Positions 1-4,234 of a DNA stretch of 4,234 nucleotides are shown here, one piece after another; the stretch's first letter is position 1; each line of letters begins with the position of its first letter. The DNA comes from a plasmid, in NCBI RefSeq assembly GCF_056746865.1, contig NZ_JBWKMP010000009.1. The stretch is one strand, 5' to 3'. Position numbers and translations under genes: made by a program. Below the pieces are notes generated by a model. The model was not told where the DNA came from. It saw only the letters and a program-made list of their open reading frames with translations, and searched no databases.

Positions 1-50
1 GCACACAATCGAAACGAAGTGAAGATTGTATAAGTGCGCACTTCGTGATG
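1..50. other. oriT: Putative MOBQ-type origin of transfer (oriT): nic-like core TAAGTGCGC at 31-39 inside a perfect 12-bp palindrome AAGTGCGCACTT (32-43), flanked by short inverted repeats
   Basis: Seen in sequence: TAAGTGCGC at 31-39 matches the nic-region core I recall for RSF1010/R1162 oriT (GTAAGTGCGCCCT). Inverted repeats at 14-21/39-46 (ACGAAGTG/CACTTCGT) and 5-10/24-29 (ACAATC/GATTGT). Position fits a divergent mobA-oriT-mobC arrangement if the window is circular. Recognition is from memory; no alignment was run. Confidence 0.45.
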
Positions 51-73
51 TGCCGTGCATTATGCCAGCTCAG

Positions 74-132
74 TTTTTAAACTACCAGTGACGCGATAAA
101 ATGCGATTTTTCATCGCGTACGGAGTTACATC
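74..132 (+). promoter_or_regulatory. Putative mobC promoter and operator region: -35-like TTTAAA (76-81), -10-like TAAAAT (97-102), CGCGAT/GCGAT/ATCGCG repeat set (92-118), SD GGAG (122-125)
   Basis: Seen in sequence: sigma70-like hexamers with a short 15-bp spacer. A small hairpin GCGAT-TTTTC-ATCGC (103-117) lies between the -10 and the SD, and CGCGAT (92-97) pairs with ATCGCG (113-118). GGAG sits 7 nt before the ATG at 133. Promoter assignment is inference only. Confidence 0.3.
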
Positions 133-408
133 ATGAGCAGAACGCTCGAACAGAAGATTGCCGAAGCTGAGGCCAGATTACAGCGCCTGAAGGCGAAGAG
201 CCGGAGCCTGGACACTGCGCAAAAAGTCATTGTGGGAGCAGCCATGCTGGCGAGGGTACGGAGGCCGGAAGAGGCGCAACTGCGTGCGTTCCTGCTCCAG
301 TTCCTGCGAAAGGAAGTCACAAGACAGGCCGATGTGAACCGGCTACAACCACTGATTAACGAGCTGGAGAAGCTACCAAGACCACCTGCGAAACCGCAGA
401 ACGGATAA
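133..408 (+). CDS. mobC: MobC/TraD-family relaxosome accessory protein, 91 aa (MOBQ mobilization accessory protein)
   Basis: ORF with an SD. The N-terminal coiled-coil-like segment (EQKIAEAEARLQRLKAK) and central motif QKVIVGAAMLARV resemble RSF1010 MobC (about 94 aa; recalled motif RKVLVGAMILAKV). Small size and apparent divergent placement relative to mobA across oriT fit. Homology is recalled, not searched. Confidence 0.75.
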   Translation: MSRTLEQKIAEAEARLQRLKAKSRSLDTAQKVIVGAAMLARVRRPEEAQLRAFLLQFLRKEVTRQADVNRLQPLINELEKLPRPPAKPQNG

Positions 409-574: not shown

Positions 575-620
575 CTCAAAAAAGCGCCGAAAAGGCGCTG
601 TTATCTGATAAGGCTATTTG
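575..620 (-). other. ori: ColE2-type origin of vegetative replication (Rep binding and primer synthesis site), abutting and overlapping the rep stop codon
   Basis: The minus strand reads AAATAGCCTTATCAGATAACAGCGCCTTTTCGGCGCTTTTTTGAG. The block AGCCTTATCAGATAACAGCGCC (plus coordinates 594-615) matches what I recall of the ColE2-P9 minimal origin, and ColE2 ori is known to lie immediately 3' of rep. Recalled, not aligned. Confidence 0.6.
577..599 (-). terminator. Hairpin AGCGCC-GAAAA-GGCGCT followed on the minus strand by T6; probable intrinsic terminator for rep, embedded in the ori
   Basis: Seen in sequence: 6-bp GC-rich stem (583-588/594-599) with a 5-nt loop. On the minus strand it is followed directly by TTTTTTGAG. 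It lies 15 nt downstream of the rep stop codon. Confidence 0.45.
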
Positions 621-1522
621 TGCATTGCCCAATTACGGATCGTATTTCGATGTACATCCAGCATCGCCGCAATAGCTTTCTGAGAATATCCATTCTCCAG
701 CATACATAGCGCCATGAAACGCTTGTCCTCGTAGGCTTCGCCTTTAGCAAGGCCACCTTTCCGGCCTCGAGCGGCCTGTACAGCGGAAAAGCCTTCCGGT
801 GAGAATTTTCTGTGCGTGTATTTCGCAATGCTCTTGCCAATAGCCCGGCATTCAGCCAGTGAAAGAGGAACGGGAAGCGATGCGTTGTACATTTCGACAC
901 GCTGGATCACGGCATCAAGCCACTGTGAGAATGCTGGCCATCCCTGACGAATCGCTCTGTAAGCCCATTTACGCGTTATTTCGAACAGGTGGCAGTTTCG
1001 CCCCAGCCCGTAATGTTTATCGACGCTACGACGCTCTGAGGCGCTCAAATCGAGATAATCAGCCAGTTCATCGAGGGTATAGGCTTCCTCGCGCCACTCC
1101 ATCACCTGCCATTCCAGGTGGAACGGATTTTTGCAAATCAGTCCGCTGTAGTTCACATCTGCGTCAAGTTTCTCACACAGCGCACGTTCAATTGCAGCGG
1201 CGTATTTCAGCACCTTAACCGACGCATCAGGCGCGGTTCTCACGGCAAGATTGAGCGCGTATAGCAGGTGAGCGTGCCCATTCACGGGATTTTTTACGGT
1301 GATGTTCGGCGCGGGGGCGTTCCGGTCGCTCCAGTCAATCGCAGCCCCCTCGCGGTCAACGTCAAAAACCAGCCAGTGTTGCGCATGTGGCTGGTTCTGC
1401 TGAATGTACCGCGCAAGAAGCGCACGCCCTTTGCCGGAGATGCGAAGGCCGAAAGCGGGATCATCCGTGTGATAGGGACGGTGAGGTAAATTTTCTTCGA
1501 AGTATTGAAGCGCGGCGCTCAT
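614..1522 (-). CDS. rep: ColE2-type plasmid replication initiator Rep, 302 aa (plasmid-specified primase with C-terminal HTH DNA-binding region)
   Basis: A 302-aa ORF matching the size of ColE2-family Rep (about 35 kDa). The C-terminal stretch SQKAIAAMLDVHRNTIRNW is HTH-like. The conserved ColE2 ori block sits immediately downstream. SD GGAAGGA lies about 9 nt upstream of the ATG. Overall similarity to ColE2/ColE3 Rep is from memory. Confidence 0.9.
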   Translation of the reverse strand: MSAALQYFEENLPHRPYHTDDPAFGLRISGKGRALLARYIQQNQPHAQHWLVFDVDREGAAIDWSDRNAPAPNITVKNPVNGHAHLLYALNLAVRTAPDASVKVLKYAAAIERALCEKLDADVNYSGLICKNPFHLEWQVMEWREEAYTLDELADYLDLSASERRSVDKHYGLGRNCHLFEITRKWAYRAIRQGWPAFSQWLDAVIQRVEMYNASLPVPLSLAECRAIGKSIAKYTHRKFSPEGFSAVQAARGRKGGLAKGEAYEDKRFMALCMLENGYSQKAIAAMLDVHRNTIRNWAMHK

Positions 1523-1529
1523 GTGTTAC

Positions 1530-1618
1530 GATTCCTTCCAGGTTATCGACCGACATCGCCCCTGTATCTTCGTGAAAGTCTTGGCGGATCTACACGAATT
1601 TCAGGGGCGTTTGTTTTT
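1530..1618 (+). ncRNA. Predicted antisense copy-control RNA (ColE2 RNAI-like) complementary to the rep mRNA leader; the 5' end is uncertain
   Basis: Established: ColE2 Rep synthesis is controlled by an antisense RNA (about 115 nt) complementary to the rep leader. Seen: a + strand intrinsic terminator (1557-1618) in the right position and orientation. Candidate -35 TTGAAG (1505-1510) and -10 TACGAT (1527-1532) are weak. The boundaries are inference. Confidence 0.4.
1557..1618 (+). terminator. Long imperfect stem-loop followed by TTTGTTTTT on the + strand; probable RNAI terminator and major antisense stem-loop
   Basis: Seen in sequence: outer stem CGCCCCTG (1557-1564) pairs with CAGGGGCG (1602-1609); inner stem TTCGTG (1569-1574) pairs with CACGAA (1593-1598). 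A U-rich tract follows on the + strand at 1610-1618; the minus-strand side has no U-tract. Confidence 0.45.
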
Positions 1619-1677
1619 CAGTCGCTTACACTACACCCAACGGCAAATCCTGTCGATCCTTCCCGAAAAACCGATCC

Positions 1678-1705
1678 ATTTACCATAACTCCTGTTGTAC
1701 GTACC
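1678..1705 (-). other. XerC/XerD site-specific recombination core (cer/psi-like multimer resolution site): GGTACGTACAA-CAGGAG-TTATGGTAAAT
   Basis: The minus strand reads GGTACGTACAA (XerC arm, 10 of 11 vs cer GGTGCGTACAA), CAGGAG (6-bp central region), TTATGGTAAAT (XerD arm, 11 of 11 vs cer). Reference sites dif, cer and psi are recalled from memory. Confidence 0.75.
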
Positions 1706-1804
1706 CCTTAAAACGCTCTCAGACGCGTTCTGACGCAAAAAACACAAAAAGACAAGAAAACACCAGGCCAAACCAGAAAAACGCGTCAGAATCGTTTTCA
1801 GGGG

Positions 1805-1822
1805 TCTGCATAACTATTCACG
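1805..1822. promoter_or_regulatory. ARG-box-like element (TCTGCATAACTATTCACG); candidate ArgR accessory site of the cer-like resolution site
   Basis: Seen: half-sites TGCAT and ATTCA separated by 4 bp, resembling the ARG box consensus (TGAAT-4 bp-ATTCA). It is centred about 120 bp from the XerCD core on the XerC-arm side, where cer-type accessory sequences lie. Assignment is tentative. Confidence 0.3.
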
Positions 1823-1897
1823 AAAGCGATGCGCGATCGGTTTCGACCGTTCAGAAGCGCGAACGGGTCAAAACGGCAAACTTTCTCATCCAGAAAA

Positions 1898-1938
1898 CGC
1901 CTCACGGGACGCGGAATTTTTTCGTGTCCCGTGAGACG
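1898..1938 (-). terminator. Probable intrinsic terminator downstream of mobA (about 13-bp stem, 9-nt loop, then UUUUCUGG on the minus strand)
   Basis: Seen: CTCACGGGAC (1901-1910) pairs perfectly with GTCCCGTGAG (1926-1935), with extra flanking pairs. On the minus strand the hairpin is followed by TTTTCTGG (plus coordinates 1890-1897). It lies about 30 nt after the mobA stop at 1969-1971. Confidence 0.45.
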
Positions 1939-1968
1939 TTGGCGGGGTTCGGGGTGCAGCCCCGGATA

Positions 1969-4188
1969 TCACATACTCATGCCCCGGTAATGTCCGGGGC
2001 GTCGTTGTTGTTGCCTGTGCTGTTCGTCCCGCTTCCATTCATGCCAGGTCTGATTAAATCCGAGTTGACGGAAGAGATAATCCGGCATCTCTTCCGGTTT
2101 GTGGACAGCAGCCAAAAGCCTGTCATGATGGCCTTTGAGCCGGAACTGCATCAGGTGCGGTTCCGGTGGGTACGGAGTATCCGCATCATGGTTTATAGCT
2201 TCTCCGTAACCTGCCAGGCATACCCCGTTCTCCGTGATGGTGCTGACTATCAGATGACTGTAATCCGGCGACGGAAGCGCAAGAACGGGACGCAGCCCGT
2301 CCTCCTGACGCACAAATCCGACAAGCACTTCCTCCGGCCCTTTGCACAACAGCAGATTCAGCGTCCTGCTGTTTCGCTCTGTCGAAAATACAACGGGCAT
2401 GAGTTGCTCCGGTGCCGCATAAGCGGTGACGTCCACCCGGTGCGCAGACGGCAGCGGAGAGGCTACGGGCCTGCGGTCGTCGCTGAAATAAAAATTATCC
2501 GGCCAGTGATGCGGCAGCGCCGGAAAACCGTAAGAGGGCCACCCCTGGCGCATCTGTTCCAGTACATGCCGGACCGTCGCACCGGAATACATTCTCACAC
2601 GCTCAGGCCGCGCCATCGTCTCATGAGATTCTGGCATTCCCTCACGTATATCCGAGACCATCACAGCCCCGCCTGGCGACAGGTAAACATTCACCGGGTC
2701 ATGAACACTCTGGGGGTAATGCGCCAGCTCATCACCCCATACCGTGAATTCTCCGGCTCTGTTACTCAGCATCATGTAGCGGGTTATCCTGCCCGTTCCC
2801 GGCTCTCTGGCACGCCCCAGCCCCGTAATAACCCCGGCTAATGCCGTTTCACGGCTCAGGCGATGGTTATCATGGTGTTTCAGCCGTGCGTCATATTCCT
2901 GTTCCTTCCGGCGCGCTTCCGCTTCGGCTTCCTCCCTGCGCCGCTCCGCTTCCCGTGCTGACAGTTTTTCTTTCAGCTCTGCCATTCCCGGCGAAATCCA
3001 CGTATTCCACTGCGTTTCAAAGGCCTGACGACGGGCGGGAATGTCCCGTTCTTTCACGGCCCTGTAGGTGCGGCGAAGAGATTCAATCTGTTTCTCGAGT
3101 TTCCAGAAGCGGAGTTGTCTTTTGCGGTATTCCGGTTCAGCCCATGTCATCAGGGGAAGCTCTGACAGGATGGACGCTACCGGACGGGCTTTTCTGAGTC
3201 CGGTCATCTCTTTTTCGAGAATATCCCGCTCTTTCACCAGCGCATTCCCCTCACGTTTGATGTCGTTTGCCTTCCCGTTCATCGCCACGAACTCCGGTGT
3301 CATCTCCCATGCGTTCCCGCATTCCTGCGGCAGTGTGGCAATGAATTCCCGCAGGGTATCCGCTGAGGCATTCGCGGCGGGAATGGTCAGATTAAGGGCT
3401 TCCGCTGCACGACGTGCGGCATCGCTGAGTTCCCGTTTCCGCACGTTCTCCTGTACCTGGATGACTGCCAGCCTTGTGCGGGAAACCTGTATTTCCAGGT
3501 TAAGGCTGTTAATCAGGCGGTTCTGCTCACCGCGTTCTGTTTCCATGCCCCGTTTTTCCATCGCACAGGCAGCCTTTCCGAGGTGAAGGCCCGGCGCTTT
3601 CTCCAGTCCCTGACGCTCGTATGAACGATGGTCTATCTCTTCCTGGTAGCCGGCGTTCGCAAGCGCTCTGTTCGCATGGTCAGCCCATGATGCGCGCCAC
3701 GTCTCGGCGAGTGCCCGGTCGTTCCAGTCCCTGACCTTTCCTGCGAATCCCGTTTCCCCGACAGCTCTCGTGGTCAGCATGATGTGTGCATGGGGGTTGG
3801 TCCGGTCCATATGATGGAACGCCACATCGGCAATCATGCCCCGACTGACAAAGTTTTCCCGGACAAAAGCGAGAACGGCCTCCCGTGCGGCCTCGCGGGA
3901 AATCTCACGGGGAATGGCGAGTTCAATCTCCCTTGCCAGCTGGGAGTTCCGGCGCTGTTCGGCTTTCTCGACCGCATTCCAGAGAACGGAACGGTCACCA
4001 CACCAGGACGGTGCATTCACAGGGGTGAGAATGACCGCATCATCAACGCCGCGTTTACGGGTGTAATCGTGGGTTAATCCGGTACGGTCATCGGGTATGA
4101 CAGAGCCGGAACGGTAGGCAGCAGAAGCAACGGCACTGTAGCCGTTTTTTCGCGAAATGATTTTCATGCTGAGATGATAAATCGCCAT
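1969..4188 (-). CDS. mobA: MOBQ-family relaxase MobA (MobA/MobL-type), 739 aa: N-terminal relaxase domain, charged coiled-coil linker, about 295-aa C-terminal domain of unknown function
   Basis: The N-terminus MAIYHLSMKIISRKNGYSAVASAAYRSG closely resembles RSF1010 MobA (MAIYHLTAKTGSRSGG...), with the catalytic Tyr at residue 25 (codon 4114-4116). His-rich metal-binding motif HHMDRTNPHAHIM is at residues 125-137 (about 3778-3816). The charged linker spans residues about 405-440. The C-terminal domain (about 1972-2856) was not recognized. Confidence 0.9.
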   Translation of the reverse strand: MAIYHLSMKIISRKNGYSAVASAAYRSGSVIPDDRTGLTHDYTRKRGVDDAVILTPVNAPSWCGDRSVLWNAVEKAEQRRNSQLAREIELAIPREISREAAREAVLAFVRENFVSRGMIADVAFHHMDRTNPHAHIMLTTRAVGETGFAGKVRDWNDRALAETWRASWADHANRALANAGYQEEIDHRSYERQGLEKAPGLHLGKAACAMEKRGMETERGEQNRLINSLNLEIQVSRTRLAVIQVQENVRKRELSDAARRAAEALNLTIPAANASADTLREFIATLPQECGNAWEMTPEFVAMNGKANDIKREGNALVKERDILEKEMTGLRKARPVASILSELPLMTWAEPEYRKRQLRFWKLEKQIESLRRTYRAVKERDIPARRQAFETQWNTWISPGMAELKEKLSAREAERRREEAEAEARRKEQEYDARLKHHDNHRLSRETALAGVITGLGRAREPGTGRITRYMMLSNRAGEFTVWGDELAHYPQSVHDPVNVYLSPGGAVMVSDIREGMPESHETMARPERVRMYSGATVRHVLEQMRQGWPSYGFPALPHHWPDNFYFSDDRRPVASPLPSAHRVDVTAYAAPEQLMPVVFSTERNSRTLNLLLCKGPEEVLVGFVRQEDGLRPVLALPSPDYSHLIVSTITENGVCLAGYGEAINHDADTPYPPEPHLMQFRLKGHHDRLLAAVHKPEEMPDYLFRQLGFNQTWHEWKRDEQHRQQQRRPGHYRGMSM

Positions 4189-4234
4189 TTCTGCCGTAAT
4201 GCCTTTTTGCCGTTTTCTTTTAGCGTCGCAGACC

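Follow-up and report, generated by a model that had tools for sequence, protein, structure and literature searches.

A probable cer-like XerCD multimer-resolution site upstream of rep in a ColE2-type (Col156) plasmid

Organization of the plasmid

The window, i.e., the whole stretch of DNA that was analyzed, is a complete circular plasmid of 4234 bp of the Col156/ColE2 type (MOBQ4), which carries the genes listed in Table 1 and is without a colicin operon. Positions 1500-1960, queried as 461 bp, are 100% identical to several 4234-bp plasmids of E. coli and Salmonella, such as pXDL-5 (NZ_CP043038), whose record gives Col156 replicon typing and a MOBQ relaxase, and more than 1100 PLSDB records match the Xer/rep region. 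The replicon has the components of the ColE2 (Col156) type, namely a Rep primase with PF03090 and PriCT domains, an antisense-RNA stem-loop in the rep leader, and a short origin directly downstream of rep, where the ColE2-type origin motif TATCAGATAACAGCGCC lies 3' of the stop codon; this motif is shared with the ColE3-like relative L008 and is nearly unchanged in L011. A strong hairpin (1935-1901) sits between mobA and the Xer accessory sequences, and is plausibly the mobA terminator, which would insulate the Xer site from upstream transcription.

Table 1. Observed and predicted features of the 4234-bp plasmid, with positions in the window.
Feature	Position	Strand	Remarks
Small divergent ORF	133..408		Pfam: no match
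rep, ColE2-type primase/initiator	614..1522	-	Pfam Replicase PF03090 (E = 6e-45), PriCT_1, HTH domain; Col156 typing
Predicted antisense RNA I unit: promoter TTGAAG-16-TACGAT (1505-1532), RNA ~1539-1618, terminator hairpin 1557-1609 followed by a T-run	1505..1620	+	PWM and fold
Predicted rep mRNA leader, target of antisense RNA I	1523..1621	-	Based on promoter prediction and the ColE2 paradigm
Predicted rep promoter: -35 TCGACA (1656-1651), 17-bp spacer, -10 TAGTGT (1633-1628)	1628..1656	-	Conservation; top PWM candidate; predicted start near 1621
XerD-binding arm TTATGGTAAAT	1678..1688	-	Same as the XerD arms of cer, mwr and parB; invariant in 18/18 related ColE2-type sites
Central (crossover) region CAGGAG, 6 bp	1689..1694	-	Always 6 bp in relatives
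XerC-binding arm GGTACGTACAA	1695..1705	-	1/11 mismatch (G4 to A) against the cer arm GGTGCGTACAA
Accessory sequences (presumed PepA/ArgR wrapping region), ~184 bp	1706..1889	-	53-60% identity to cer, mwr and parB; shared blocks
Degenerate counterpart of the cer Pcer promoter: GTGAAT-15-TGAAAA	1795..1821	-	Aligned position of ColE1 TTGCAT-15-TAAAAT (L002 3796-3822)
ARG box (ArgR-binding palindrome) TGCATAACTATTCA; minus-strand reading TGAATAGTTATGCA	1807..1820	.	Unique in the window; 0.02 expected by chance
Terminator-like hairpin (1935-1901) and U-tract (UUUUCU), end of mobA	1894..1935	-	Fold -31.6 kcal/mol, z = -6.4; inverted repeat I1
MobA/MobL relaxase gene (mobA)	4188..1969	-	One of three main genes

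The Xer core

A 28-bp Xer core, GGTACGTACAA-CAGGAG-TTATGGTAAAT, is present as a single copy in the window, at 1678-1705 on the minus strand, and was matched in none of 200 shuffled sequences. Its two 11-bp arms, for XerC and XerD, flank a central region within the 6-8 bp of cer-like plasmid Xer sites. Read directly against the core of ColE1 cer, GGTGCGTACAA-TTAAGGGA-TTATGGTAAAT, the XerD arm is identical and the XerC arm agrees at 10 of the 11 positions, whereas the central region, 8 bp in cer (TTAAGGGA), is 6 bp here. On each of these points the earlier note, made from this DNA alone, had read the core correctly. It had also likened the central region to those of dif and of pSC101 psi. The length is indeed the same, as is that of the 28-bp core, but it confers no special status, since two sites of the ArgR/PepA type have 6 bp as well: pJHCMW1 mwr (GGTGCACGCAA-CAGATG-TTATGGTAAAT) and CloDF13 parB (GGTACCGATAA-GGGATG-TTATGGTAAAT), which share the XerD arm of the window and differ in the XerC arm.

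All elements of the site are on the minus strand, in the order accessory sequences, XerC arm, XerD arm, rep, and the orientation towards rep that had been proposed is thereby confirmed. Counted from the rep ATG (A at 1522), the core is 156-183 nt upstream, so that its placement before the gene stands, while the previously given distance of 130-180 nt was slightly low. The extent proposed for the whole site, 1678-1900, fits as well, as homology with the relatives starts at ~1887-1889.

An ARG box and accessory sequences beside the XerC arm

As in cer-like sites, accessory sequences in the range of ~180-200 bp adjoin the XerC arm and contain an ARG box at the corresponding distance from the core. 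Their length is in line with the ~180 bp of cer and mwr (PMC2699498), and they lie on the same side of the core as in cer, with shared blocks. The minus strand from 1960 to 1655 aligns almost without gaps with ColE1 cer, starting upstream of the ARG box and continuing across the core, and in a four-way alignment of the window, cer, mwr and parB the core, the ARG box, a T-tract and two further blocks, CGCG and GGTG..TT.TTG, stay in register. Identity over the accessory sequences is 55% to cer, 60% to mwr and 53% to parB. The outer boundary, near 1887-1889, is also where homology starts among ColE2-type plasmids and in the remnants on IncF plasmids described below. T-tracts are located at -76, -55, -45, -37 and -8 here vs. 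-66, -44 and -7 in cer, and their phasing is not clearly alike.

An ARG-box-like element about 120 bp from the core had been pointed out before, and it corresponds to the palindrome at 1807-1820, which, like that of cer, consists of one TGAAT and one TGCAT half-site. The distance between the centers of ARG box and core is 122 bp, vs. 121 bp in cer. From the center of the box to the XerC arm we count 108 bp in the window, mwr, parB and all relatives, and 106 bp in cer, whereas the distance from the box to the XerD arm is a constant 125 bp in the window, cer, mwr and parB.

The accessory sequences separate the site from two others that have a 28-bp core and a 6-bp central region. In contrast to the window, with its ARG box, psi uses ArcA and not ArgR; no ArcA-type repeats (TGTTA-N6-TGTTA-like) were found within 1706-1889, two matches elsewhere in the window being at chance level, and a psi-like (ArcA/PepA) site was rejected for this reason. 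The dif site, which is FtsK-dependent, lacks accessory sequences (PMC11724359), and a dif-like, FtsK-dependent site is ruled out by the presence of accessory sequences with an ARG box. Core length in itself is compatible with accessory control, as recombination can depend on accessory sequences whether the Xer site has 28, 29 or 30 bp; Xer sites on small plasmids all have accessory sequences, and 28-bp sites that do not have them are found almost only on large replicons (PMC11724359).

Conservation among ColE2-type plasmids

We compared the window with 14 ColE2-type plasmids whose Rep proteins are ~55-94% identical to its own, which makes 15 replicons. The Xer core occurs in 10 of them, i.e., the window and nine relatives from E. 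coli, Salmonella, Klebsiella and Edwardsiella (Rep ~60-94% identical), and is absent from the other five (L012, L014, L015, L017, L018). In all ten Xer-bearing replicons the core is 28 bp long and has the same orientation, the XerD arm is invariant, the central region measures 6 bp, and the XerC arm begins 183-217 bp before rep. All of them keep the ARG-box palindrome, and the stretch from the box to the core is free of indels throughout. The central region of the relatives reads CGGGAG, CGGGAA, CGGATG or CGGGCG, with CGGGAG commoner among ColE2-related sites than the CAGGAG found here. The XerC arm varies more among the relatives than the XerD arm; variable XerC arms are usual among Xer sites. 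The ColE3-like plasmids L007, L008 and L010 show the same arrangement at the same distance from rep, with cores of the form GGTRCGTRCAA-CGGGAR-TTATGGTAAAT, and the accessory sequences of L008 and L010 are 85-88% identical to those of the window. PMC6856555 and PMC2831885 cite Hiraga et al. (1994) for cer-like sites in the ColE2-related plasmids ColE2-P9, ColE3-CA38 and ColE9-J. Neither the site nor the 6-bp length of its central region is thus new in kind, and the subfamily is one that has already been noted in ColE2-related plasmids.

This pattern bears on the question whether the locus could be a non-functional remnant of a cer-like site, carried along with the replicon. That the related mwr site resolves dimers inefficiently in standard medium (PMC2699498) would agree with such a relic. 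However, the XerD arm has remained invariant, the length of the central region and the ARG-box palindrome have been kept, and the interval between ARG box and core has stayed free of indels even though Rep has diverged to ~60% and the accessory sequences to ~55% identity. We consider a relic highly improbable.

Proposed function of the site

Taken together, homology to cer, mwr and parB and conservation in the relatives agree with the cer-like XerCD site that the earlier note had claimed. The most probable reading of 1678-1889, to which we assign a probability of roughly 0.85, is a cer-like XerCD multimer-resolution site of the 28-bp class, presumably dependent on ArgR and PepA, of a ColE2-type (Col156, MOBQ4) plasmid. 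Both proteins are required at mwr (PMC2699498). Following the cer/mwr paradigm, the XerC and XerD proteins of the host would bind GGTACGTACAA and TTATGGTAAAT, respectively, on either side of the crossover region CAGGAG, with ArgR at the ARG box and PepA on the ~184 bp of accessory DNA around it. When the plasmid is a dimer, its two accessory regions, as direct repeats, would interwrap around PepA and ArgR, and this would activate XerC-first strand exchange within one molecule only, converting dimers to monomers; either XerD or a Holliday-junction resolvase of the host would complete the reaction.

Some doubt remains, because we infer the binding of these proteins, the recombination and the dependence on accessory factors from sequence, homology, geometry and conservation, and because cer derivatives with a 6-bp central region hint at a selectivity looser than that of cer. 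The combination of a near-consensus XerC arm and a 6-bp central region resembles such engineered derivatives, which reportedly lost their dependence on accessory factors (Summers 1989; Blakely and Sherratt 1996). A literature search for "type II hybrid" cer derivatives gave no match. By analogy with the derivatives, strict resolution selectivity would not be guaranteed at the site.

If the assignment is correct, it places a multimer-resolution site on a very common small plasmid of E. coli and Salmonella, with little import beyond annotation; in the PLSDB record the Xer site (1678-1889), the rep promoter and RNA I are all unannotated.

The predicted rep promoter, its leader and RNA I

A consensus promoter/terminator scan of 1400-2050 found no promoter on either strand. 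The scan also misses the known Pcer promoter of ColE1, as the 15-bp spacer of Pcer falls outside the required spacing of 16-18 nt, and it is therefore uninformative. A position weight matrix (PWM) scan was written to replace it, in which TCGACA-17-TAGTGT ranked first on the minus strand of 1560-1960. As its score is no better than that of the best match in shuffled DNA, support for this rep promoter comes from conservation. The block ATCGACAG, which contains the -35 box, is invariant in the ten-plasmid alignment and is followed 17 bp on by TAnnnT; the spacing between the two is fixed at 17-18 bp in the 10 replicons with a Xer core as well as in the five without one, where the block has this or a variant form. 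In the distant lineage the sequence of the spacer differs, with its length kept. The predicted promoter starts 21 bp downstream of the XerD arm, which puts the core at about -57 to -84 if transcription starts near 1621.

According to the ColE2 paradigm, the 5' untranslated region of the rep mRNA has a complementary antisense RNA (PMC5304414, PMC6856555). Expression of rep would be controlled here as in ColE2, by an antisense RNA I from the plus strand (~1539-1618). The candidate RNA I promoter scores 11.3 in the PWM scan, and the stem-loop with its T-run folds at -30.6 kcal/mol (z = -3.6). The complement of the predicted RNA I terminator, AGAAAAACAAACGCCCC, is conserved in all relatives, just downstream of the rep promoter. 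Rfam, which has no family for ColE2 RNA I or for Rcd, gave sub-threshold matches only, among them PK-repBA at 1487-1610 (E = 0.0045). The Xer site appears to abut the replication-control module yet to be separate from it.

Counterparts of Pcer and Rcd

In ColE1, cer carries the Pcer promoter (TTGCAT-15-TAAAAT) and specifies Rcd, and it is not adjacent to a rep gene. The placement of the Pcer hexamers is our own reading and agrees with the reported spacer of 15 bp (PMC5935869). The aligned position in the window reads GTGAAT-15-TGAAAA, in which the critical A2 and T6 of the -10 hexamer are lacking, and GGAAT-like degeneracy is seen at the site. The fold of the Rcd-equivalent region is not better than that of shuffled sequence (z = -0.29), and substitutions among the relatives in the inverted-repeat arms of this region are not compensated. 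The Rcd-like transcript that had been suggested finds no counterpart in these features; an Rcd-like RNA at the site was rejected on the degenerate promoter and the insignificant fold. A ColE1 cer in the strict sense was likewise rejected, as the central region has 6 bp instead of 8 and the combination of Pcer with a 70-nt Rcd checkpoint RNA was not found.

Possible exchange between plasmids at the Xer site

The mwr and parB sites reside in plasmids of the ColE1 type (RNA I/II), away from a rep promoter. In pMTY18530-5 (L016), by contrast, accessory sequences of the mwr type are found together with a ColE2-type rep. Over the 200 bp on the left side of the core, identity to pJHCMW1 mwr is 94%; over the 200 bp on the right side, it is 88% to L013, a plasmid of the ColE2 type, but only 50% to pJHCMW1. 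The switch from the mwr-type left half to the ColE2-type right half is located exactly at the Xer core.

More than 400 conjugative plasmids, mostly IncF, also match the Xer/rep region. In the two IncF plasmids that were examined the Xer site is intact and the rep fragment (Col156) is dead. The IncF homology extends to either side of the core and stops at the accessory boundary near 1887. On a Rosenbergiella chromosome there is a remnant that consists of the core and ATCGACAG.

Besides resolving dimers, the site may be a hotspot of intermolecular Xer recombination, which would give cointegrates and module swaps between plasmids, possibly with a selectivity relaxed by good arms and the 6-bp central region. 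The mosaic that switches at the core, the IncF plasmids with a Col156 rep fragment and an intact site, and the chromosomal remnant in Rosenbergiella all speak for such a role, and plasmid evolution mediated by Xer sites has been proposed by Tolmasky and co-workers (as cited in PMC6764390). On the other hand, the conserved ARG box and the fixed geometry argue for accessory control that has been maintained, and hence for resolution selectivity, the IncF homology crosses the core, so that this junction was not made there, and rare historical events do not define the normal function of a site. We regard this additional role as a tentative possibility, less likely than not. The homology switch at the core and the IncF remnants are of modest value for the understanding of plasmid evolution.

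Position of the Xer site relative to rep expression

The earlier note had placed the core where the rep promoter is expected, had likened the XerD arm to an extended -10 element, and had speculated that assembly of the recombination complex might affect rep transcription. In its broader form the idea is that the core overlaps or controls the rep promoter, and that assembly of XerCD, PepA and ArgR, or a promoter within the core or accessory sequences, alters Rep synthesis according to the monomer or dimer state of the plasmid. Several observations could be taken in its favor: the core adjoins rep, co-oriented with it, in all ten Xer-bearing ColE2-type replicons; only two distances separate the XerD arm from the -35 box, 21 bp in the Col156/ColE3 lineage and 10 bp in that of Klebsiella/Edwardsiella/Kluyvera, and they differ by 11 bp or about one helical turn; and a weak candidate promoter, TTAAGG-18-TATGGT (1711-1682; PWM rank 2), has its -10 box inside the XerD arm, where XerCD binding would occlude it.

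Other observations speak against it. The conserved TCGACA-17-TAnnnT lies downstream of the core and not on it, and rep is preceded by this promoter block or a variant of it in the five Xer-less replicons of the 15. In L014, L017 and L018, GGAAGGATTCGACAG is followed after 18 bp by TAAYTT and then by the complement of the terminator, with the stop codon of an unrelated nadS/toxin-antitoxin gene immediately before the block; the Xer-less L012 and L015 have variant -35 boxes. As the block is present in Xer-less replicons, the rep promoter would work without the Xer core, which runs counter to the proposed effect of the recombination complex. Read as an extended -10 (TGGTAAAT(G), or TGG-TAAATG), the XerD arm ranks 87th or lower in the PWM scan, and this reading was rejected. 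The degenerate counterpart of Pcer, the unstructured Rcd-equivalent RNA and its uncompensated arms also speak against the idea.

The 11-bp difference is suggestive, but the two spacing classes coincide with two lineages and represent one indel event, and they provide no statistical test of helical phasing. A scan of contigs for TTATGGTAAAT-N(4-34)-ATCGACAG gave 79 loci, of which only six were true ColE2-type matches and the others chance matches or a Psychrobacter-specific motif; six loci are too few to test helical phasing. The constant adjacency, finally, can be explained by linkage alone. Exchange within the core would not part the XerD arm from the sequence 10-21 bp to its right, so that the two stay juxtaposed without regulatory coupling, and tight linkage is most simply the reason why core and rep are always neighbors. 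Control of rep by the site is thus very unlikely. Were it real, it would tie the sensing of dimers to copy-number control in a Rep-dependent replicon, and the present evidence points the other way: the Xer site appears to lie just upstream of the rep promoter, not on it, and nothing in the sequence suggests that it regulates rep.

We give very little credence to a related scheme, in which the location of the core at about -57 to -84 of the rep promoter, on one side and in one orientation, lets the XerCD/PepA/ArgR complex report the multimer state to replication control. The secondary promoter with its -10 box TATGGT in the XerD arm could be covered in one of the two states and exposed in the other, or XerD could contact RNA polymerase at the rep promoter, and in either case the supply of Rep would differ between monomers and dimers. 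As to TTAAGG-18-TATGGT itself, it may be a minor promoter that is occluded by XerCD.

Probable exchange at the Xer core

The ColE2-type plasmid pMTY18530-5 (L016) is a mosaic with its breakpoint at the Xer core: the 200 bp to the left are 94% identical to mwr of pJHCMW1 (L003), and the 200 bp to the right match a Klebsiella ColE2-type replicon (L013) at 88% identity. Judged by sequence, this pattern is the signature of heterologous plasmids exchanging at the core. In pJHCMW1 itself, the Tn1331 inverted repeat (GGGGTCTGACGCTCAGTGG...) starts 19 bp past the mwr XerD arm, so the original right flank of mwr was displaced by the transposon.

The central region reads CAGGAG in the window plasmid and one other plasmid compared with it (L005); most Col156/ColE3 relatives, like the copies carried by IncF plasmids, have CGGGAG instead. 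As homology in the central region is required for strand exchange, one might speculate that this one-base difference limits recombination with co-resident CGGGAG sites.

The distance from the centre of the ARG box to the XerD arm is constant at 125 bp in cer, the window, mwr and parB of CloDF13 (L004). In cer, which has an 8-bp centre, 106 bp separate the ARG box from the XerC arm, versus 108 bp in the other three; a gap 2 bp shorter balances the two extra central bases of cer.

Coordinates of the features compared
Feature	Source	Position
ARG box-core span, cer	ColE1 (L002)	3796-3938
ARG box-core span	window	1678-1820
Central region	window	1689-1694
Mosaic	L016 (NZ_AP023195)	519-946
Segment compared with mosaic	L003	3115-3342
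Right flank of mwr, with Tn1331 inverted repeat	L003	3343-3400
Region with IncF-type copy	L098 (NZ_CP145623)	16578-23117
Region with IncF-type copy	L099 (NZ_CP051736)	16578-22932
Homology to L098 and L099	window	794-1887
Rosenbergiella locus	L020 (NZ_JABBFR010000002)	4800-4862
RNA I/rep-leader loop	window	1574-1590
Hairpin region (-)	window	1894-1940
Inverted repeat	window	about 1-55
mobA-ORF intergenic region	window	1-132 and 4189-4234
91-aa ORF	window	133-408

Copies on large plasmids and core-like sequences on chromosomes

Matches to this region in PLSDB include more than 400 conjugative plasmids, mostly IncF. In both of the IncF-type copies inspected (L098 and L099), the Col156-type rep is truncated or deleted, its remnant adjoining cjrABC-like genes, and the Xer site is intact (GGTACGTACAA-CGGGAG-TTATGGTAAAT) with a complete accessory region, whose boundary is the end of their homology to the window. 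Possible readings are that the large plasmid has co-opted the site or that a cointegrate left it behind as a scar.

A chromosomal contig of Rosenbergiella gaditana carries GATGTACGCAC-CAGATG-TTATGGTAAAT, followed after 7 bp by ATCGACAG. The left flank (GCTGAGGGTTTCTGAGG) is plasmid-like and no rep is present at the locus, which from its sequence looks like a leftover junction from the integration of a ColE2-type plasmid. Thirteen Psychrobacter chromosomal loci (L019, L024, L032, L047, L048, L062-L064, L066, L072, L075, L078 and L090) share GGNCCACGYTTTGCWAC-TTATGGTAAAT, with ATCGACAG always 34 bp further on; they represent a conserved chromosomal motif whose match to the search pattern is fortuitous.

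Flanking elements

Just 3' of the mobA stop codon lies a strong hairpin with a U-tract (z = -6.4). It is likely a terminator that keeps mobA transcription from running on into the Xer site and rep; because it has only four U residues, it escaped the consensus terminator scan.

Within the hairpin loop of RNA I and the rep leader, the Col156/ColE3 lineage, as aligned with its relatives, has UUGGCG on the RNA I strand, whereas the Klebsiella/Edwardsiella lineage has the motif on the mRNA strand instead (ATCTTGGCGGAT versus ATCCGCCAAGA). The Rfam PK-repBA match is weak (E = 0.0045) and probably reflects the loop motif common to both.

mobA and the 91-aa ORF, for which there was no Pfam match, are divergent, and the intergenic region separating them contains an inverted repeat. 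Going by the published description of MOBQ4 (PMC6856555), oriT should lie in this intergenic region, and the ORF should be mobC.
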